Source: Anaeromyxobacter sp. (lineage in GTDB: Bacteria > Myxococcota > Myxococcia > Myxococcales > Anaeromyxobacteraceae). From it: a stretch of DNA of 64,000 nucleotides. This document shows positions 14,696-63,545 of this stretch, in pieces. Below the pieces are notes generated by a model. That model ran no database searches, was not told the origin of the DNA, and saw only the letters and a list, made by a program, of their open reading frames with translations. The DNA lies in NCBI GenBank assembly GCA_049840735.1, contig JASGJN010000021.1, positions 192,001-256,000 of the forward strand, written 5' to 3'. Positions within the stretch are counted from its first letter, which is position 1. Each line of letters opens with the position of its first letter. Both the position numbers and the translations under genes were made by a program.

Positions 14696-16111
14696 GGCAG
14701 CTCAGGGGAATCCTCCCGGAGGCACCGCGGCCTGTCGCGTCCGCGACGCCGGCAGTGCGCGACGCGGCAGACGATCCCGGTCTGGGCCATCGCACGATCC
14801 GCTTCCTGTTCTGGATCGCGGCACTTCCCGTCCTCTTCGTGGTCCTCTGCCTGCAGATCCCGCAAGAGGCCGTGCCGCCCGAGTTTGGGATCGTGGCCTC
14901 CGCGGTCGTGTGCGGGGTCTGGCTCTGGGCCATCGGCCTGCTCCTCCGCCGCTACAGGCTCCGGTTCCCGGTCCGGCTTTCGACGGTGGCGCTCATCGCC
15001 GCCGCGAAGGTGGCCGTCGGTCTCTGGTACTGGCACACCTACCTCTACGACCTGGAGTCGGGCCGACCCCGCATCGAGTTCGTGCAGCTCGAGAGCTACG
15101 GCGAGCGGCGTGCGGACGTGGAGTCGCTCTTCCAGATCATCCGCATCTTCGATCAGTCAGGGGTCCACTACATCACGCCCGCGGAGGCGAACCTCTCCAT
15201 CAACAACCGGCCCCCCGCCCATGTCTCGGCGATCATCGTCCGGGCCTTCGGCGAGCAGGTCCCGGCCCTCTTCCCGTTCCACGCCTTGCTGGCCGCCGCG
15301 GCGGCGATCGCACTGACCCTCACGGCCCGCCTCCTGGGCGTCCAGGGCGCACGACTCCGGACATGCGCTCTCGTGCTCCTGCTCTGGCCCTACAGCTGGC
15401 AGGTCGCCATGGCGGGCAAGGACCTGATGCTGATGGCGCTGGTGGGCATCTGCGCAGCGGTGCTGGTGGCGGGAGAGCGGGTAGGGACGAAGTTCCCGTG
15501 GGGCGTCCTCTACGCGTTCTGCGTTCTCCCGCTCTTCCGCCCCGTCTACGCGCTGGTCTGCGCGGCGCTGGGGACGTCACTCCTGCTGCGCAGGAAGGTC
15601 TCCCTGGTCGTCAAGTTCTTCGGGCTCCTGCTGGTGGTCGGCCTGGGGGCAGGACTGACGCTGGGCCTTTCGCTCGAGGAGAACGTGGCCCAGCACGCCA
15701 CCTGGGCGCCGAACGAGAGCCGGCTGCTCACGGTACCGATCTTCGGAAAGAATCGTCTTCGGCCTGGGCACGCCGTTCCCATGGACCCAGGTGGCCGACG
15801 GCTGGTGGAAGTACCCGATGGTCTTCCTCTTCGCGCAACAGGTGATGACACTTGCCACCTTGGCGTGCATCCTCCACTCCGCGGGGGTGAAGGTCATCCG
15901 TCGTGTCCCCGACCTCGGCGTGCTGCTCGGCGTCGGCCTGCTCGTGGGCGGCCTCGCCGTTCCCAACACCCAGGCGCTGTACGTCCAGGTGGGCGTGATC
16001 GCGATGGTGCCCTTTGCCGTCGCGCAGGCGAGGCGGTCATTCGACTATTTCGTGCGGGCGTCCCTGGCGGCCTTCGTCGCCGGCAACGCCCTCTGGGTGT
16101 TGATCCGCTGA
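14692..16111 (+). CDS. Putative Wzy-type polymerase; +1 frameshift near 15750, likely a sequencing error
   Basis: Multi-TM protein with a periplasmic loop. Removing one A from GAATC at 15750-15754 joins IFGK to IVFGLGTPFPW and the 15791-16111 frame. Confidence 0.6.
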
Positions 16112-35526: not shown

Positions 35527-35562
35527 CCTGACCAGCCTCGAGCGGAACGCGATCGGGGCTGG

Positions 35563-35674
35563 GCTTCGACTCCGCGAGCGCTGCGGGCTCGCTACGCCCT
35601 CGCTACGCCCAGCCCGAACGGAAGCCCGTTCGCCCTGAGCGTAGCCCCGGTGTGAGCCGCGGCGGAGTCGAAGC
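35563..35674. repeat. Palindromic repeat, inverted dimer (locus A)
   Basis: Left arm GCTTCGACTCCGC...GCTACGCCCAGCCCGAACGG (35563-35621). Inverted right arm CCGTTCGCCCTGAGCGTAGC...GCGGAGTCGAAGC (35626-35674). Confidence 0.85.
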
Positions 35675-35996
35675 GCGGCGGAAGGCAGCCTGGAGCGTGA
35701 GCATGGGTCGCACTCCGGTGTGGAGGAGTGCGCGTGATCGTTTGCGCGGGTGCGGCAAAGGTTCACGCCGGGTTTCTCCCGATGGACCTCCGCGGGGCTA
35801 TGCGCTACGACGTGCCCCGGGGAAGCACCAATAGAACCTGTTGGGTGCGACAAACCGGTGGGCCAGGGGCCCTTCCGAGTTGGCGCCCCCGCTGTGTCGA
35901 ATCGATCGCCGGCGATGCCGCCGGCCCGAACCTGCCCGGGGGGGACAGGATGAGCCTCATGGTGGAAGTGCGGTGCGACGCGCGGCGGGAGACGCC

Positions 35997-53673: not shown

Positions 53674-53764
53674 CCACCGCTCCGGCGCGCGGGCTTCACG
53701 GCCGTACGTTCCCGCGGCGAGGCTGCTGCGCAGGTAACTGTCAGTGAAGCCGCCGCGAGCTCGT

Positions 53765-53816
53765 GCTTCGACTCCGCGAGCCGGCTGTGCCGGCTCGCTA
53801 CGCTCAGCACGAACGG
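53765..53816 (+). repeat. Palindromic repeat, single arm (locus B)
   Basis: GCTTCGACTCCGC-GAGCCGGC-TGT-GCCGGCTC-GCTACGCTCAGCACGAACGG. Confidence 0.85.
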
Positions 53817-54146: not shown

Positions 54147-57100
54147 ATGTTCACGCCCGTCCTCCCCGAGTCGAAGAAGGTCAAGGTCACGGTCAACGGT
54201 CGCGAGCTCCTGCTCGCCCCGGGCCTGACGCTCCTGCGCGCGCTGCTGCAGGAGGGCATCCACGTCCCGCACCTCTGCTTCGACACGCGCCTGGAGCGGT
54301 CGATCGGCAACTGCGGCCTGTGCGTGGTCGAGCTGCGCAACGAGGCGCGCGACGTGAAGGCCTGCCAGACGCCGGTCAAGGCGGGCATGGAGGTCGTCAC
54401 CGACACGCCCAAGCTCCAGGCCTACCGCCGCATCCGCCTGGAGCAGCTGCTGGGGCAGCACGACGCCGACTGCGTCGCGCCCTGCGTCCAGACCTGCCCG
54501 GCCCACATCGACATCCAGACCTACCTGCACCAGGTCTCCAGCGGGAACATCGAGGCCGCCCTCCGCGTCATCAAGGAGCGAAACCCGTTCCCCTCGGCCT
54601 GCGGCCGCGTCTGCCCGCACACCTGCGAGGCGCAGTGCCGGCGCAACCTGGTGGACGCCCCGGTGGCCATCAACCACGTGAAGCGCTTCGTGGCCGACTG
54701 GGACATGGCCCGCGAGACGCCCTTCATCCCGCAGGCCTCGGCCCCCTCGGGCCGGAAGATCGCCATCCTGGGCGCGGGCCCCTCCGGCCTCTCCGCCGCC
54801 TACTACGCGGCCATCCACGGCCACGAGGTCACGGTCTTCGAGCGCCTGCCGGAGCCGGGCGGGATGATGCGCTACGGCATCCCGGAGTACCGGCTGCCGA
54901 AGAAGGTCCTGGACGCCGAGATCGACGTGATCCGCGCCCTGGGCGTGAAGATCCTCACCGGCAAGTCGCTGGGCACGCACCTCCGCCTGGAGGAGCTGCA
55001 GAAGACCTACGACGCGGTCTACCTGGCCATCGGCTCCTGGCGCGCCACGCCCATGCAGATCGAGGGCGAGACCACCGAGGGCGTGTGGCTGGGCATCCAG
55101 TACCTGGAGGCCGTCACCAAGGGTGACAGGGTGCCGCGCGCCGACCGCGTGGTGGTGATCGGCGGCGGCAACACCGCCATCGACTGCGCCCGCACGGCGC
55201 TGCGCCGCGGCGCCAAGAGCGTGCAGCTGGTCTACCGCCGCACCCGCGACGAGATGCCGGCCGCGCCCTACGAGGTGGAGGAGGCGCTCCACGAGGGCGT
55301 GGAGATGCTCTTCCTGGCCGCGCCCAGCAAGATCGAGAAGACCAACGGCCACCTGACGCTGCACTGCATCCGCATGGCGCTGGGCGAGCCCGACCGCTCC
55401 GGCCGCCGCCGGCCGGTGCCGGTGGACGGCAGCGAGTTCCAGCTGGAGGCCGACCAGATCGTCGGCGCCATCGGCCAGAGCACCAACACCCAGTTCCTCT
55501 ACAACGACCTGCCGGTCCAGCTGAACAAGTGGGGCGACATCCAGGTCAGCGGCAAGACCATGCAGTCGTCGGTGGAGAAGGTCTTCGCCGGCGGGGACTG
55601 CGTGACCGGCCCGGCTACCGTGATCCAGGCGGTGGCGGCGGGGCGCGCCGCGGCCGAGTCGATGCACGAGCTGCTCTCCAAGGGGTTCGTCTCCGAGCGC
55701 TCCGACAGCTACGCCTGCAGCCGCGGCCGGCTGGAGGACCTGCCCCGCTACGAGTTCGAGGAGCTGCCCAGGTCGAGCCGCGCGCCCATGCCGGCGCTGG
55801 TCCCGACCGAGCGCATCCGCTCCTTCGTCGAGGTGGAGACGGGCATCAGCGAGGCCGAGGCGCGCGCCGAGTCCTCGCGCTGCCTGGAGTGCGGCTGCTC
55901 CGAGCGCGTCAGCTGCGAGCTGCGCAGCGAGGCCACCGCCCACGGCATCGAGCACAAGCCGCCGGTGGCCCGCCTCGAGCACTTCGCCATCGTGAAGGAC
56001 CACCCCTTCATCCTCCGCGACCACAACAAGTGCATCTCCTGCGGGCGGTGCGTGGCGGCCTGCGCCGACATCATCGGGCCGGACGTGCTCAACCTGTACG
56101 TGAAGCGCGGCCGGATGCTGGTGGGCACCAAGAGCGGTCTGCCGCTCAACGACACCGACTGCGTCTCCTGCGGCCAGTGCGTGAACAGCTGCCCCTGCGG
56201 CGCGCTGGAGTACCGGCGCGAGCGCGACCAGGTGTTCCGCGCCCTCAACGACAAGAAGAAGCTGGTGATGGGCTTCGTGGCGCCGGCGGTCCGCTCGGTG
56301 ATCTCGACCCACTTCGGCGTGCCCTTCAACGAGGTGGGCGGCTTCATGGCGGGCCTGCTGCGCAAGCTGGGCTTCGCCAAGGTCTTCGACTTCGTCTTCG
56401 CGGCCGACCTCACCATCGTGGAGGAGACCACCGAGTTCCTGAACCGGGCCGACGAGGGCGGGAAGTTCCCGCAGTTCACCTCCTGCTGCCCGGGCTGGGT
56501 CAACTTCGTGGAGCGCCGCTACCCGGGGCTGATCGAGCACTTCTCCACCTGCAAGTCGCCGCAGCAGATGATGGGCTCGACGGTGAAGGCCCACTATCCG
56601 AAGTGGGCCGGCCAGGACCTGAAGCGCGACGAGATGTTCCTGGTCTCGGTGGTCCCCTGCCTGGCCAAGAAGGTCGAGGCGGCGCGGCCGGAGTTCGCGC
56701 CGGACGGCGTCCGCGACGTGGACGCGGTGCTGACCACCTCCGAGCTGATCGAGATGATCACGCTGGCCGGCATCGACCCGCGGGAGGTCCAGCCGGGCGA
56801 GTTCGACGAGCCCTACAAGCAGGTCTCCGGCGCGGGCATGCTCTTCGGCTCCACCGGCGGCGTGGCCGAGGCGGCGCTGCGCATGGCGGCCGAGAAGGCC
56901 ACCGGGAAGGTGCTGGAGAAGCTGGACTTCGAGGAGGTCCGCGGCCTGACCGGCTTCAAGGAGGCCACGGTCCAGCTGGGCGAGGCCAAGGTCCGCCTGG
57001 CGGTCATCTCCGGCCTCAAGAACGCCATCCCGGTGCTGGAGCAGATCAAGGCCGGCAAGGACGTGGGCTACGACCTCATCGAGGTCATGACCTGCCCCGG

Positions 57101-57596
57101 CGGCTGCATCGGCGGCGCAGGCCACCCGGTCCCGGTGGCGGTGGGCGAGATGAAGGCCCGCCAGGACGTGCTCATCGACATCGACCGCACCTCCAAGCTG
57201 CGCAAGAGCCAGGAGAACCCGGACATCCTCCGCCTCTACGAGGAGTTCTACGGCGAGCCCAACTCGCACCTGGCCCACCGGCTGCTGCACACGCATTACA
57301 CGCCGCGCGGCGGCGACGCCAGGGCGCACAAGGCGGTCGTGAACCCGTCCGACTCGGCCTTCCGCACGCACGAGCTGCAGATCTGCTTCTGCGACGTCTG
57401 CGCGGGGAAGGGCTCTGCCCAGCTCTTCGACACGCTGACGGAGAAGGTCCGCGACGGCGGCCTGGAGCCGATGGTCGAGGTGAAGCCGGTCCGGCTCTCC
57501 GAGAAGCACGCCACCAAGGAGGTCTACGTCACGCTGGACGGGCAGCAGACGGGCGTGGAGCAGCTGCAGGCCATTCACCGGCTGGTGAGGGCGTAG
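54147..57596 (+). CDS. hydA: [FeFe]-hydrogenase catalytic subunit with an embedded GltD-like FAD/NAD(P) module and a C-terminal thioredoxin-like domain
   Basis: [2Fe-2S] domain, then a GltD block (APC..CPAH, CGRVC...CE..C, GAGPSG, GGGNTAID), 2x[4Fe-4S] motifs, and H-cluster motifs TSCCPGW, PCLAKKVE and EVMTCPGGCIGGAGHP. Small-subunit motif LLHTHY. Confidence 0.95.
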   Translation: MFTPVLPESKKVKVTVNGRELLLAPGLTLLRALLQEGIHVPHLCFDTRLERSIGNCGLCVVELRNEARDVKACQTPVKAGMEVVTDTPKLQAYRRIRLEQLLGQHDADCVAPCVQTCPAHIDIQTYLHQVSSGNIEAALRVIKERNPFPSACGRVCPHTCEAQCRRNLVDAPVAINHVKRFVADWDMARETPFIPQASAPSGRKIAILGAGPSGLSAAYYAAIHGHEVTVFERLPEPGGMMRYGIPEYRLPKKVLDAEIDVIRALGVKILTGKSLGTHLRLEELQKTYDAVYLAIGSWRATPMQIEGETTEGVWLGIQYLEAVTKGDRVPRADRVVVIGGGNTAIDCARTALRRGAKSVQLVYRRTRDEMPAAPYEVEEALHEGVEMLFLAAPSKIEKTNGHLTLHCIRMALGEPDRSGRRRPVPVDGSEFQLEADQIVGAIGQSTNTQFLYNDLPVQLNKWGDIQVSGKTMQSSVEKVFAGGDCVTGPATVIQAVAAGRAAAESMHELLSKGFVSERSDSYACSRGRLEDLPRYEFEELPRSSRAPMPALVPTERIRSFVEVETGISEAEARAESSRCLECGCSERVSCELRSEATAHGIEHKPPVARLEHFAIVKDHPFILRDHNKCISCGRCVAACADIIGPDVLNLYVKRGRMLVGTKSGLPLNDTDCVSCGQCVNSCPCGALEYRRERDQVFRALNDKKKLVMGFVAPAVRSVISTHFGVPFNEVGGFMAGLLRKLGFAKVFDFVFAADLTIVEETTEFLNRADEGGKFPQFTSCCPGWVNFVERRYPGLIEHFSTCKSPQQMMGSTVKAHYPKWAGQDLKRDEMFLVSVVPCLAKKVEAARPEFAPDGVRDVDAVLTTSELIEMITLAGIDPREVQPGEFDEPYKQVSGAGMLFGSTGGVAEAALRMAAEKATGKVLEKLDFEEVRGLTGFKEATVQLGEAKVRLAVISGLKNAIPVLEQIKAGKDVGYDLIEVMTCPGGCIGGAGHPVPVAVGEMKARQDVLIDIDRTSKLRKSQENPDILRLYEEFYGEPNSHLAHRLLHTHYTPRGGDARAHKAVVNPSDSAFRTHELQICFCDVCAGKGSAQLFDTLTEKVRDGGLEPMVEVKPVRLSEKHATKEVYVTLDGQQTGVEQLQAIHRLVRA

Positions 57597-57599
57597 GAT

Positions 57600-58110
57600 C
57601 CCTGGCCTTCGACTCCGCTGCCGCCTGCGGCGGCAGCTACGCTCAGGCCGAACGGGGCCGGGCGGAAGTGGCTCAGGCCGAACGGGGCCGGGCGGAGTCG
57701 GGCGGGAGCAGGGTCAGGCCGAGCGGGGCCGGGCGCAGGTCGGGCGGGTGGCGGTTCAGGCCGAACGGGGCCGGGCGGAGGTCGGGCGGGAGCAGGGTCA
57801 GGCCGAACGGGGTCGGGCGGGAGCGGGCTCAGGCCGAACGGGGCCGGGCGGAGGTCGGGCGGGAGCAGGGTCAGGCCGAGCGGGGCCGGGCGCAGGTCGG
57901 GCGGGAGCAGGGTCAGGCCGAGCGGGGCCGGGCGGAGGTCGGGCGGGAGCAGGGTCAGGCCGAACGGGGCCGGGCTCAGGTCGGGCGGGTGGCGGTTCAG
58001 GCCGAACGAGGCCGGGCGCAGGCGGGGCAGAAATGGCTCAGGCCGAACGGACACGGCAACCCCGTTCGCCCTGAGCGTAGCGAGCCCGCAGGGCTCGCGG
58101 AGTCGAAGGG
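57600..58110. repeat. Palindromic repeat, inverted dimer enclosing a tandem array (locus C)
   Basis: Left arm 57606-57655, 11 TCAGGCCGARCG cores mostly 42 nt apart, and an inverted right arm at 58062-58110. Confidence 0.92.
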
Positions 58111-58170
58111 CAGGGAAGAGAAGTCGGCGGGTGCTGAGGGGCGCGCCGCCGGGGAACGGGAACGAAGGGC

Positions 58171-59544
58171 ATGGACGTCGTGATCGACGAGGGCCGGATC
58201 GAGGCCCAGCTGGCTGCGCCCCCGCCGGACGCTGCGCAGGTGGCCGCGATCCTGGCTCGCGCCCGCGAGCTGAAGGGGCTGGGGCCGGAGGACGTCGCCG
58301 CGCTGACGCGCCTCGAGGCGCCGGAGGCGCTGGAGCAGCTCTTCGCCGCCGCCGCCCACGTCAAGGAGACCATCTACGGGCCGCGCGTGGTGCTCTTCGC
58401 GCCGCTCTACGTCTCCAACGTCTGCGCCAACGAGTGCAGCTACTGCGCCTTCCGGCTCAGCCACGACCTGCCGCGCCGCGGCCTCTCCACCGACGAGGTC
58501 ACCCGCGAGGTCGAGGCGCTGGTGCGCCAGGGCCACAAGCGGCTCCTGATCGTCTCCGGCGAGGCGCTCTCCAACCGCTACTTCGACGAGCTGCTGGAGG
58601 CCATCCGGGCCGCCTACGCGGTCAAGCTGGGCAACGGCGAGATCCGGCGCATCAACGTCAACGTGGCGCCGCTGGACGTGGCCCGCTTCAAGCGGCTCAA
58701 GGAAGCGGACATCGGCACCTACCAGCTCTTCCAGGAGACCTACCACCTCCCCACCTACCAGACGGTCCACCGCAAGGGGCCGAAGCGCGACTACGCCTAC
58801 CGGCTCGACACCATGGATCGCGCCATGGAGGCGGGGATCGACGACGTGGGGATCGGCGTCCTGCTGGGCCTGCACGACTGGCGCTTCGAGCTCTTGGCCA
58901 TGCTGCAGCACGTGGCCCACCTCGAGCGGCGCTTCGGCGTGGGGCCGCACACCATCAGCGTCCCGCGCCTGGAGCCGGCCGACGGCTCCTCCATCTCCCG
59001 CCTGCCGCCCTGGGCGGTGAGCGACGAGGACTTCCTCAAGCTGGTGGCCATCCTGCGCCTGGCGGTGCCCTACACCGGCATCATCCTCTCCACCCGCGAG
59101 CAGCCGGAGCTGCGCCGCCGCGCGCTGGCGCTGGGCGTCTCGCAGATCTCCGCCGGCAGCCGCACCGACGTGGGCGGCTACAGCGAGCTCTCCACCAGCC
59201 CGGGGCAGTTCCAGCTGGGCGACCACCGCAGCCTGGAGGAGGTGGTCCGGGACCTTGCGGAGATGGGCTACGTGCCCTCCTTCTGCACCGCCTGCTACCG
59301 GCTGGGCCGCACCGGCCAGGACTTCATGGACCTGGCCAAGCCGGGCGCCATCAAGAACCACTGCGACCCCAACGCGCTCTCCACGCTGGTCGAGTACCTC
59401 TGCGATCACGCCTCGCCCGACACGGTCCGCATCGGGCGCGGCCTGGTGGCGGAGCGGCTGGCGCACATGGACGACAAGCGCCGGCGGCTCACCGAGAGGC
59501 TGGTGTCCAAGGTGGAGGCGGGCCAGCGCGACGTGCTGGTGTAG
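58171..59544 (+). CDS. hydG: H-cluster maturase HydG (radical SAM)
   Basis: LFAPLYVSNVCANECSYC, LFQETYH, PHTISVPR and the C-terminal CTAC-x22-C motif. Confidence 0.95.
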   Translation: MDVVIDEGRIEAQLAAPPPDAAQVAAILARARELKGLGPEDVAALTRLEAPEALEQLFAAAAHVKETIYGPRVVLFAPLYVSNVCANECSYCAFRLSHDLPRRGLSTDEVTREVEALVRQGHKRLLIVSGEALSNRYFDELLEAIRAAYAVKLGNGEIRRINVNVAPLDVARFKRLKEADIGTYQLFQETYHLPTYQTVHRKGPKRDYAYRLDTMDRAMEAGIDDVGIGVLLGLHDWRFELLAMLQHVAHLERRFGVGPHTISVPRLEPADGSSISRLPPWAVSDEDFLKLVAILRLAVPYTGIILSTREQPELRRRALALGVSQISAGSRTDVGGYSELSTSPGQFQLGDHRSLEEVVRDLAEMGYVPSFCTACYRLGRTGQDFMDLAKPGAIKNHCDPNALSTLVEYLCDHASPDTVRIGRGLVAERLAHMDDKRRRLTERLVSKVEAGQRDVLV

Positions 59545-59546
59545 CC

Positions 59547-60950
59547 ATGGTCGCCACGCGGACAGAGTCGGACCTGCTCGGCACGCGCGAGCTGCCGGCG
59601 GACGCGCTGCACGGCATCCACACCGCCCGGGCGCTGGAGAACTTCCCGCTGGCGGGCCGGCCGGTGCACCCGGCCCTGGCCCGCGCCTACGGCGTGGTGA
59701 AGTGGGCCTGCGCCCAGACCAACGAGGCGCTGGGCGTCTGGACCGGCCAGCCGGAGAAGGCCCGCGCCATCCTGGCCGCCTGCCGCGAGCTAGCCGAGGG
59801 GGCGCTGGCGCACGAGATCGTGGTCGACGCGCTGCAGGGCGGCGCGGGCACCAGCACCAACATGAACGTGAACGAGGTGCTGGCCAACCGCGCCTTGATC
59901 CTGCTGGGCCAGGCGCCGGGCCGGTACGACCTCGTCTCCCCCACCGACGATCTCAACCGCCACCAGTCCACCAATGACACCTACCCGACCGCCCTGCGCC
60001 TCGCCGCGATCTGGGGCGTGCGGGCGCTGGAGGCGGAGGTGGTCCGGTTGCAGGAGGCCTTCCAGGCCGCCGAGCGGCGCACCGAGCACGTGGTCAAGAT
60101 CGGCCGCACCGAGGGGATGGACGCGGTGCTGCTCACGCTGGGGCGCGAGCTGGGCGCCTACGCCGAGGCCGTGAACCGCGACCGCTGGCGGCTCTCCAAG
60201 TGCGAGGAGCGGCTGCGGGTGGTGAACCTGGGCGGCACGGCGGTGGGGACGGCGCTGGCGGCGCCGCGCGCCTACGTGTTCCGCGTGGTGGAGGCGCTGC
60301 GCGACCTCTCCGGCGTGGGCTTCGCGCGGGCCGAGAACCTGGTCGAGGCCACGCAGAACGCCGACGTCTTCGTGGAGGTGATGGGGCTCCTGAAGGCCCA
60401 CGCCACCTCGCTCTTCAAGGTCGCGAACGACCTGCGCCTGCTGGCCTCCGGCCCGGAGGCCGGGCTGGGCGAGCTCAAGCTCCCGGCCCAGCAGGCCGGC
60501 TCCTCGATCATGCCGGGCAAGGTGAACCCGGTCATCCCGGAGGCGGTGGCCCAGGCGGCCATGCGCGTCTTCGGCGAGGAGGCGGCGCTCTCGCTGGCCT
60601 GCGCGCAGGGCTCGCTGGAGCTGAACCCGTTCCTGCCGCTGGTAGCGGTGACGCTGCTCGACAGCCTGGACCTGCTGACCCGCACCGACCGCATCTTCCG
60701 CGAGCGCTGCGTGGCCGGGCTGGAGGCGGACGAGGCCCGCTGCCGGGCGCACCTCGAGTCCTCGACCGCCACCGCCACCGCGCTCCTGCCCGCGCTGGGC
60801 TACGAGCGCGCCACCGCGGCGGTGGCCCAGGCCAGGGCGGAGGGGCGGACGCTGCGCGCGGTGGTGGTGGGGAACGGCTGGATGACCGAGGCGGCCTTCG
60901 ACGCCGCCATCGCGCCGGAGGCCGTCAACCGGCTGGGGTTCGGATCATGA
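59547..60950 (+). CDS. aspA: Aspartate ammonia-lyase
   Basis: GIHTARALENF, QGGAGTSTNMNVNEV, QSTND and GSSIMPGKVNP motifs. Confidence 0.92.
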   Translation: MVATRTESDLLGTRELPADALHGIHTARALENFPLAGRPVHPALARAYGVVKWACAQTNEALGVWTGQPEKARAILAACRELAEGALAHEIVVDALQGGAGTSTNMNVNEVLANRALILLGQAPGRYDLVSPTDDLNRHQSTNDTYPTALRLAAIWGVRALEAEVVRLQEAFQAAERRTEHVVKIGRTEGMDAVLLTLGRELGAYAEAVNRDRWRLSKCEERLRVVNLGGTAVGTALAAPRAYVFRVVEALRDLSGVGFARAENLVEATQNADVFVEVMGLLKAHATSLFKVANDLRLLASGPEAGLGELKLPAQQAGSSIMPGKVNPVIPEAVAQAAMRVFGEEAALSLACAQGSLELNPFLPLVAVTLLDSLDLLTRTDRIFRERCVAGLEADEARCRAHLESSTATATALLPALGYERATAAVAQARAEGRTLRAVVVGNGWMTEAAFDAAIAPEAVNRLGFGS

Positions 60951-62453
60951 ACGTGGTGCAGCAGCCGGCGCCGCCGCCCAAGGGGCAGCGCACGCACATC
61001 GGCCTCTTCGGCCGGCGCAACGTGGGCAAGTCCAGCCTGCTCAACGCGCTGGTCCGGCAGAGCGTCTCCATCGTCTCCGACCAGGCGGGCACCACCACCG
61101 ACCCGGTGGAGAAGCCCTTCGAGCTGCAGCCGCTGGGGCCCGTGCAGTTCATCGACACCGCCGGCATCGACGACGTGGGCGCGCTGGGCGAGCTGCGCGT
61201 CGCGAAGACGCGGCAGGTGATCGACCGGACCGACCTGGCCCTGCTGGTGACCGAGCCGGGCGTCTGGGGCGAGTACGAGCGGTCGCTGTGGGAGGAGCTG
61301 CAGCGGCGGGGCGTCGCCACGATCGTGGTGGTCAACAAGAGCGATCTGGCCCTGGCCTTCGACTCCGCTGCCGGCTTCGCCGGCAGCTACGCTCAGGCCG
61401 AACGGGGAGGCGGCGGCGAGGCGCAGGCCGAACGGGGAGGCGGCGGCGAGGCGCAGGCCGAGCGGGGGGGCGGTGGCGAGGCGCAGGCCGAGCGGGGGGG
61501 CGGTGGCGAGGCTCAGGCCGAACGGGGGGGCGGCTATGCTCAGGCCGAACGGAGCGGTGTCTCCGGTTCGACCAGCCTCAACACCGTTCCCCCTGAGCGT
61601 AGCGAGCCCGCAGGGCTCGCGGAGTCGAAGGGTCGAACGGGATTCGATTGCCGTCTCCGCCCACACCGGCGCCGGCCTCGACGCCCTCCGCGGCGAGCTG
61701 CTGGCCCGCGTGCCCCCCGAGTGCCTCCGCCCGCCCAGCATCCTGGGCGACCTGGTGGGCCCGGGCGAGCTGGCGGTGCTGGTGGTCCCCATCGACAAGG
61801 AGGCCCCCGCCGGCCGGCTGATCCTCCCCCAGGTGCAGTCCATCCGCGACCTGCTCGACAGCGACGCGATGTGCCTGGTGGTGAAGGAGCGCGAGCTGAA
61901 GGTGGCGCTGGAGCGGCTCAACCGGCCGCCGAAGCTGGTGGTCACCGACTCGCAGGCCTTCCTCAAGGTCTCGGCCGACGTGCCGAAGGGCGTGCCGCTC
62001 ACCAGCTTCTCGATCCTCTTCGCCCGCTACCGCGGCGACCTGGTCAAGCAGGTGGAGGGGGCGCTGGCGGTGGACGGGCTCCGCTCCGGCGACCGCGTCC
62101 TGGTGGCCGAGGCCTGCGGCCACCACCCCATCGGCGAGGACATCGGCCGGGTGAAGATCCCGCGCTGGCTGACCCAGTACACCGGCGCCAACCTCGAGTT
62201 CGTCCACACGCAGGGGCACGACTTCCCGGCCGACCTGCCCAGCTACAAGCTGGTGATCCACTGCGGCGCCTGCACGCTCAACCGGCGCGAGGTCACCGGC
62301 CGGCTGCGCCGCTGCGCCGACGCCGGCGTGCCGGTCACCAACTACGGCGTGGTCATCGCCCACAGCCTGGGCATCCTGGACCGCGTGCTGGACCCGTTCC
62401 CGGCCGCGCAGGAGGCGCTGCGGGCGGCGAAGGCGCGGCAGGAGACCGCGTGA
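60947..62453 (+). CDS. hydF: H-cluster maturation GTPase HydF with a repeat-derived ~95-aa insertion; +1 shift at ~61643, likely a sequencing error
   Basis: GRRNVGKSS, TTTD, DTAG, NKSD, then the insertion, then VSAHTG, GRLILPQ, ACGHH and HCGAC. Confidence 0.92.
61350..61632. repeat. Palindromic repeat, inverted dimer enclosing a 30-nt tandem array, inside hydF (locus D)
   Basis: Left arm starts CCCTGGCCTTCGACTCCGC. Six CAGGCCGARCGG cores at 61394, 61424, 61454, 61484, 61514 and 61541. The right arm (61584-61632) is nearly identical to that of locus C. Confidence 0.92.
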
Positions 62454-63545
62454 TCCCCTGCCCTTCGACTCCGCCGGGGCCGGGGGCCCCGGCTACGCTC
62501 AGGGCGAACGGACTCCTCGAGCGACTCGAGCAGGAGCACGCGCTCGCGCGCGACGAGCTCATCACCCTGCTCGAGACCCCCGGCCTCGACGCCCCGCTGC
62601 TCGCCGCCGCCGACCGCGTCCGGCGCGCCAGCGTGGGCGACGAGGTCCACCTGCGCGGCCTGATCGAGTTCTCCAACCAGTGCGCGCGCAACTGCCTCTA
62701 CTGCGGCCTGCGCAAGGACAACCGCTCGCTCACGCGCTACCGGCTCACGCCGGACCAGGTCCTCGACCTGGCCCGCAAGGCGGTGGGCTACGGCTACCGC
62801 ACCGTGGTGCTCCAGTCCGGCGAGGGGACGCTCTATCGCCACGAGGAGCTGTGCGAGCTCCTGCGGGCCATCCACGGCCTGGGCGTGGCCATCACGCTCT
62901 CCCTCGGCGAGAAGACCCGCGCCCAGTACGAGGCCTACCGGGCCGCCGGGGCGGATCGCTACCTGCTCCGCATCGAGACCACCGACCGCGACCTCTATCA
63001 CCGGCTCGATCCCGGGCATGTCCTTCGACGACCGGGTGCGCTGCCTGCGCGACCTGCGCGAGCTGGGCTACGAGGTGGGCACCGGCTGCCTGGTGGGGCT
63101 GCCCGGCCAGACCCTGGCCTCGCTGGCGGACGACCTGCTCTTCTTCCAGGCCATCGACGCCGACATGATTGGCCTGGGCCCGTTCATCCCCAACCCGCGC
63201 ACGCCGCTGGGGAACGAGCCGGTGGGCAGCCTGGAGCTGGCGCTGCGGGTGATGGCCCTGGCGCGCCTGCTGCGCCCCGACGCCAACATCCCGGCCACCA
63301 CCGCGATGGAGACGCTCGACCCTGGCCGCGGCCGCGTGCGGGCGCTCAAGGGCGGGGCCAACGTGGTGATGCCCAACGTCACCGAGGGTGACGCCCGGCG
63401 GCTCTACGCGCTCTACCCCGGCAAGGCCTGCGCCGGCGAGGACCCGCAGGCCTGCAACGGCTGCCTGGGCAACACCATCGAGGCCATCGGCCGGACCATC
63501 TCGACGGGACAGGGGTTCCGGCGCGGGCGCGCGCCGCAGGCCTGA
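62450..63545 (+). CDS. hydE: H-cluster maturase HydE (radical SAM); +1 frameshift near 63012
   Basis: RGLIEFSNQCARNCLYCGLR, VVLQSGE, RYLLRIET, DMIGLGPFIP, PATTA, GANVVMPN and YALYPGK. GTGA overlap with the hydF stop. Confidence 0.92.
62461..62511 (+). repeat. Palindromic repeat, single arm within the 5' end of hydE (locus E)
   Basis: CCCTTCGACTCCGC-CGGGGCC-GGG-GGCCCCG-GCTACGCTCAGGGCGAACGG, 51 nt long. Confidence 0.9.

Follow-up and report, generated by a model that had tools for sequence, protein, structure and literature searches.

Can a maturase gene that carries a palindromic repeat inside its GTPase domain, and that is assembled in two reading frames, still encode an intact protein? The question is raised by hydF near the end of the window, the whole 64,000-nucleotide stretch of DNA analysed here (G000:C21:192001-256000), which belongs to a 6.67 Mb assembly of ~74% GC in 26 contigs. 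A complete operon composed of a multidomain [FeFe] hydrogenase gene, hydG, an aspartate ammonia-lyase family gene, hydF, and hydE closes the window (Table 1), with codon usage fully adapted throughout 54147-63545 (GC3 0.96-1.0). The gene, a single copy in the genome, is assigned to HydF (TIGR03918) by the motifs G1 to G5, the dimerisation and tetramerisation domains, and the hyd operon setting, all of which are present. From the ATG at 60947, the N-terminal frame reaches the end of NKSD at 61345, AVSAHTG starts at 61650 in the +1 frame, and the hydF stop is overlapped by the GTG start of hydE at 62450. As assembled, the single reading frame is interrupted by a +1 break, and the annotated product of the locus (P0051) is a 305-aa fragment. 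None of the 36 other genomes of the genus searched contained hydF, hence the operon is probably accessory.

Table 1. Genes and hairpin-repeat features of the hyd operon and its surroundings (window positions, unless a contig is named)
Feature	Position	Strand	Evidence or remark
Upstream operon genes	54147..60950	+	each in a single frame
Multidomain [FeFe] hydrogenase gene (hydA)	54147, ends 57596	+	one frame
Intergenic sister copy, inverted dimer with longer tail array	57600..58115	+	between hydA and hydG
hydG	58171-59544	+	one frame
Aspartate ammonia-lyase family gene (aspA)	59547-60950	+	one frame
hydF 5' part, G1 to G4 (GRRNVGKS, TTT, DTAG, NKSD)	60947..61345	+	TIGR03918 positions 3-128, E 8e-53; GC3 0.99
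Left monomer: CTTCGACTCCG, variable hairpin, CTACGCTCAG, GC-CGAACGG	61350..61405	+	one arm of the inverted dimer
Tail tandem array, periods 30, 30, 30, 30, 27; six tail units	61391..61552	+	TRF period 30, 5.4 copies
Right inverted monomer	61582..61641	-	+ strand encodes PERSEPAGLAESKGRT; 54 nt 96% identical to sister copy end
GATTC, where one base was probably inserted in error at a GATC; likely place of the +1 break	61641..61645	+	genome-wide motif statistics
hydF 3' part, G5 (VSAHTG), dimerisation and tetramerisation domains	61644..62453	+	TIGR03918 145-392, E 9e-104; PF18128, PF18133; GC3 1.0
hydE	62450..63545	+	TIGR03956 in two frames; own +1 break near 63015, few bases past a GATC
Hairpin-repeat monomer forming the first ~20 codons of hydE	62456..62511	+	HydE model starts at residue 23; next in-frame start only at 62633
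Small GIY-YIG gene (L025, L209)	G000:C21:263786-264070		PF01541; ~8 kb past window end, 10 kb from hydF insert

The interval between G4 and G5 is filled, at 61350-61641, by an inverted dimer of a REP-like hairpin repeat with an internal tandem array. The head of the left monomer, from CTTCGACTCCG through the hairpin to CTACGCTCAG, spans 61357-61396, and the core of the right monomer lies at 61593-61630 on the minus strand. The array encodes (AQAERGGGGE)x4-AQAERGGGY-AQAER, AQAERGGGGE and PERSEPAGLAESK being among the peptides of the insert, and ~95-97 aa would most likely be added overall to HydF. An earlier note, made from the sequence alone, had described an inverted-dimer copy between NKSD and VSAHTG; its coordinates, its peptide, and the stop-free N-terminal frame were found to be correct, and mapping of the tail units returned the same array periods. 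Within the window, the core 12-mer of the repeat has 9 matches, compared with a shuffle mean of 1.3, a count of 9 being reached by 0/100 shuffles. The insert is a real inverted dimer of a genome-wide family of REP-like hairpins, the tail of which has been tandemly expanded. The host flanks at 61341-61346 and 61646-61651 pair in the RNA fold and add 6 pairs to the element stem, possibly by chance.

Genome-wide, 487 long and 32 short monomers were counted at 355 loci, with 71 inverted pairs. Monomers have the form XY-CTTCGACTCCG, variable hairpin, CTACGCTCAG-X'Y'-CGAACGG, in which the outer dinucleotides XY and X'Y' are complementary in 405/419 monomers, through several pair types. The exact pattern was matched 359 times in this genome, the highest count among 37 genomes of the genus, and was found in 20 of the other 36. 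Tail arrays are frequent (23 array rows with periods of 20-57, two arrays being counted on both strands). Further copies in the window are an inverted dimer at 35557-35680 and a monomer at 53760-53816, upstream of the hydrogenase gene. As expected of REP/REPIN elements, the family is a high-copy hairpin with conserved pairing that occurs as monomers, inverted dimers, and arrays. More specific identities were rejected: that of a GTAG/CGTC REP because the tag is not the rule (within 12 nt upstream of 13 and 30 of 483 monomers, respectively), that of a RAYT-linked REPIN because no copy lies within 1.5 kb of the six Y1 transposase (PF01797) matches, that of an SRM because its degenerate motif matched 0/355 element loci, and that of a MITE because 28/34 dimers had no flanking direct repeat, five having 2 nt and one 3 nt. 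Rfam returned nothing at E up to 1 over 57500-62700, and a search of open-access papers yielded no description of the repeat family or of HydF inserts.

The earlier note had also claimed that the insert expanded under frame selection, and this claim held only in part. The sister copy, though intergenic, has periods of 30, 41, 42, 42, 31, 42, 42, 42, 21, 21, and 41, with 8/11 being multiples of three, and arrays are common in the family, so that periods are a weak argument for frame selection; the hydF array comprises no more than two period events that are independent. The changes among array units are more telling: according to the codon table, none of the four variable columns alters the encoded residue in the N-terminal hydF frame, nor does one TAC to TAT change, and the break is thereby placed 3' of the array. 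Of these variable columns, however, two also vary naturally across the element family, and the right monomer has one non-synonymous change with respect to the common form, in our reading. The description of the insert in the earlier note as a variable-length linker goes further than the sequence of a single strain allows. Both the N-terminal and the C-terminal hydF frames are stop-free across the insert, hence the frames alone do not fix the break at GATTC.

The break itself was assessed against the frame switches of the whole genome, which a codon-usage model flagged in 969 of 5318 predicted genes, false calls included. GATTC or GAATC occurred within 20 nt of 191 of the 413 high-confidence +1 switches, compared with 113 of 20000 random in-gene positions. 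In clearly coding DNA, +1 switches were found at 80/134 GATTC and 124/204 GAATC sites, compared with 182/11676 GATC sites, and in congener loci (222 kb) they were marked by 0/6 GATTC/GAATC sites. The infB gene (C13:170152-171896) is likewise spread over three frames, and one of its breaks coincides exactly with such a site, within the NKID motif. This enrichment and the splitting of infB indicate that GATC sites have gained spurious bases in the assembly, presumably through an effect of methylation on long-read base calling. The presence of GATTC at 61641-61645, and of the same error pattern in other genes, had been put forward in the earlier note and is borne out by these counts. Frameshift findings from this assembly (G000) consequently need caution, many genes being falsely broken. 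Further insertion sites in the window were located at 15752, 23549, 23847, and 40686, and ATT codons are 8-fold commoner after G than after C, which suggests GATC to GATT miscalls.

At a single site the evidence is more balanced. About 1.75% of GATC sites carry the insertion, a rate that rises to 3.9% in the sequence context of the hydF site (31/795). The tail following the element end reads GATC in 109 cases and GATTC in 11, and GATTC or GAATC occurs in or beside 30/380 element loci; with a per-site error rate of only 1.75-3.9%, these occurrences leave room for a true GATTC. The posterior for an error ranged from 0.17 to 0.90 depending on prior and rate, and from 0.51 to 0.98 when the synonymous changes were assumed to contribute a factor of five. 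A near-identical HydF was not found in any other assembly. On these sequence data, it is probable that the +1 break in hydF is an assembly error, GATC having been read as GATTC.

The other mid-gene copies show how the family behaves in coding DNA. From the 355 loci, 20 with coding signal on both sides were selected; 14 remained once three whose upstream frame contains a stop and three at gene ends or boundaries had been removed. The frame is kept in 11 of them and shifted by +1 in three, with none at +2 (binomial P 7e-4). The three +1 copies are those in hydF at GATTC, in larC at a G9 run, and in lhr near G5/C5 runs, and three such cases in 14 are more than would be expected from the average error rate. 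Among the host proteins are a secretin with AMIN domains, which carries two copies, RecG, in which the insert is an 84-aa dimer, and DUF748, DUF2126, TPR, FHA, and Omp85 proteins. Parallels occur in other genomes as well: in the larC comparison, for which 15/21 loci were parsable, the linker is 12-34 aa long in 13 other rows and reaches 101 aa in G021 (L270, G021:C1:2857800-2860300), where it is encoded in frame by an inverted dimer of the element family plus a 72-nt array, while the element lies in frame in recG in three other genomes, among 13 other loci listed. As with RPEs, copies of one repeat hence lie both in intergenic DNA and, with the frame kept, within unrelated genes, and linkers and loops are where the family persists in frame. 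The proposal of the earlier note, that of a mobile-type palindromic element probably inserted in frame in an RPE-like manner, is supported by the 11 mid-gene copies that keep the frame. Across genomes of the genus, the larC linker contains differing repeat-derived peptides (L258, L260, L265, L267, and L270) of up to 101 aa in frame, and the N-terminal linker of RecG (L210-L223) ranges from 78 to 143 aa, with the element at varied positions and orientations in four genomes.

In HydF, the interval concerned is 21 residues long in most homologues and 11-12 in the sister clade of the window protein (SH-aLRT 95 in a quick tree of 121 rows). The replacement of ~20 native residues, as proposed in the earlier note, fits the former figure but is overstated; judging from the sister clade, only ~7 would have been lost, if the ancestor resembled it. 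The modal G4-G5 length was found in 149/160 HydF DNA loci, none of which is frameshifted there. Long insertions (at least 15 aa) were surveyed in the 143 near-full-length proteins among 150 HydF representatives, a set that over-samples odd proteins and in which some short insertions may be alignment noise; 25/48 fell between G4 and G5, from 22 proteins, compared with 2.9 expected under uniformity. The G4-G5 interval is the commonest insertion site of HydF. Another cluster of long insertions occurs at reference positions 95-104, before G4 (P0142, P0167, P0182, P0212, P0242, and P0254), and two sister-clade proteins (P0024 and P0028) carry a ~20-aa insert in the third HydF domain, after GHDFP.

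Other in-frame inserts at the same site were found in P0030 (99-aa gap), P0044 (74), and P0082 (70). A peptide-level test for coding by an inverted repeat gave 0/100 shuffles for P0030 and P0082, was marginal for P0044 (4/100), and failed for P0078, P0089, P0064, and P0096; the insert of the window HydF, a known inverted dimer, also failed it (38/100), so the test is of low power. In L034, no inverted repeat at the locus is longer than the one formed by the +33-aa G4-G5 insert. Four near-identical proteins, represented by P0138, contain a ~90-aa tandem repeat in this interval; a short member of the cluster, considered as an empty site, was rejected, being an N-terminal truncation. A single record, P0169, accommodates a whole DUF559 endonuclease domain (residues 132-300, E 4e-37), with repeat-like peptides at both sides. 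Searching the homologue insert peptides against the 160 loci by tblastn gave chance-level matches only. The empty site that the earlier note had hoped for in close relatives did not emerge, the 36 congeners being without hydF and the best homologues ~76% identical.

Structure prediction with the insert, also envisaged in the earlier note, returned a confident HydF fold: in the AlphaFold2 model of the read-through protein, 304/501 residues have a pLDDT of 90 or more, the best fold matches are HydF, and residues 143-217 fall under 50. The insert is thereby predicted to form a disordered loop. According to PMC5431965, the GTPase domain of HydF must be active for hydrogenase maturation; this being the only hydF in the genome, an intact operon implies that the insert is tolerated.

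We favour, with a probability of roughly 0.78, the reading that hydF is intact and carries an in-frame, tolerated passenger insert, the +1 break being a GATC to GATTC assembly error. The element would have arrived after the hyd operon entered the lineage, as the absence of hydF from the congeners suggests, taking the place of ~7 codons in a G4-G5 loop that was short to begin with, and with no target duplication. Its tail array may have grown by slippage or unequal recombination, as in other copies, and the insert would have survived through keeping the frame at the point of the GTPase fold most tolerant of extra sequence, where it would make a disordered loop. A small GIY-YIG nuclease, the gene of which is flanked by the hairpin family, may spread or maintain that family.

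A true extra base would mean instead that the insertion knocked out hydF and that decay has begun in a hyd operon gained by horizontal transfer, hydE being broken too. Two of the five operon genes do break as assembled, the operon is absent from the congeners as judged by hydF, real GATTC tails may exist (11/120), and the odds turn towards a true break when the prior is flat and the synonymous changes are given no weight. However, the motif at the break is the dominant error of this assembly and splits infB too, frame switches are modelled in so many genes (false calls included) that two of five is not unusual, and hydA, hydG, and aspA are unbroken. Both halves of hydF retain a GC3 of 0.99-1.0 and all the G motifs, and no mid-gene copy is at +2, which makes decay an unlikely explanation. 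It is still harder to reconcile with the data that a repeat copy from elsewhere in the genome was joined into hydF by misassembly. The hundreds of family copies and the lack of a near-identical HydF in another assembly would permit it, but the sister copy differs from the insert both in its left hairpin and in its array unit (30 nt in hydF), the insert is shorter than 300 bp in a 26-contig assembly with long-read-like errors, and in-frame parallels exist in recG and larC of other genomes; moreover, without the element G4 and G5 would be only 4-5 residues apart, compared with 11-12 in the shortest close homologues. Misassembly is therefore very improbable. Slightly less remote, though improbable, is a functional insert, in which an acidic Gly/Ala loop or a long mRNA hairpin tunes the level or activity of HydF, or a real break is recoded. 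The insert RNA folds far better than shuffles (z -4.1, 0/100), and at both ends of the element-coded stretch the model has short helices beside the nucleotide site. Any inverted dimer would nevertheless be expected to fold strongly, the G4-G5 inserts of other HydFs have no sequence in common with this one, 149/160 loci have the plain length, and no promoter- or terminator-like site was found at the insert. Ribosomal bypass between two GAT triplets was rejected, as G4 and G5 would then be three residues apart, presumably too few for the fold.

The nuclease that may spread the hairpin family is encoded close by. Three GIY-YIG genes are encoded in the genome, one of which, 10 kb from the hydF insert, sits among 14 repeat monomers. 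Homologues were searched in 151 genomes and the best 30 loci retained: among the 14 at E <=1e-28 (own genome included), the element was present in 9 by the strict pattern and in 12 by a pattern relaxed after viewing these loci, and in 0/16 of the weaker ones. These associations suggest that the GIY-YIG nuclease moves or maintains the family. As assembled, this small gene has no stop until 345 codons, its frame continuing through the downstream repeats. A broader and distinctly tentative reading, which we consider possible though improbable on balance, is that the G4-G5 loop of HydF acts across phyla as a landing pad for unrelated nuclease-linked hairpin systems (the family described here with its GIY-YIG link, further palindromic repeats, and an entire DUF559 cassette flanked by repeats) and as a standing source of in-frame protein sequence, this hairpin family being moved by the GIY-YIG gene 10 kb away. 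If so, the loop would accept ~100-150 residues, even a whole domain, with H-cluster maturation kept. Provided that the hydF frame is intact, the insert marks a natural permissive site that could carry tags or spin labels to probe the role of the HydF GTPase.

In-frame palindromic inserts are already known from RPEs and intragenic REPs, and by analogy the HydF insert would work alike; the surprise expressed in the earlier note is thus reduced, the insert being real while similar cases occur in other genes of the genome and genus and the HydF loop repeatedly takes long inserts. RPEs, as summarised in PMC10969869 (Ogata 2000, 2002), are about 150 bp long, encode a conserved peptide, and lie in ORFs in nearly half of the cases. 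The likeness is one of layout, in that a palindromic repeat occurs between genes and in frame in unrelated ones, adding a peptide; in contrast, the hairpin family is mid-gene at only 14/355 loci, uses several frames, and in hydF forms a dimer with an internal tandem array. GTAG/CGTC REPs, as presented in PMC3733652 (Di Nocera 2013), form intragenic clusters encoding 43-82 aa and often strike DNA-repair genes; the two families share monomers and inverted dimers, a mostly intergenic location, and hits in repair genes (here RecG and Lhr), whereas the present one lacks the tag as a rule and a Y1 transposase neighbour. If the frame is intact, the ~97-aa insert would be among the longer repeat-coded ones recorded, relative to that range, and would lie inside a catalytic domain that PMC5431965 describes as essential for hydrogenase maturation. 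The Ssn system, with its NTS/SRM hairpins (Chenal 2025, PMC11893778), resembles the present one in having a stand-alone GIY-YIG gene of ~95 aa flanked by a high-copy hairpin, but the SRM pattern is lacking at all element loci and GIY-YIG is known here from a PF01541 match; the locus represents a candidate nuclease-hairpin pair outside the published Ssn motif. Finally, the G' subdomain of EF-G, which according to PMC3150367 comprises 90-120 aa between G4 and G5, is an insertion of similar length in the same interval of a P-loop GTPase; it is old, folded, and functional, whereas the HydF insert appears recent, repeat-derived, and predicted to be disordered.
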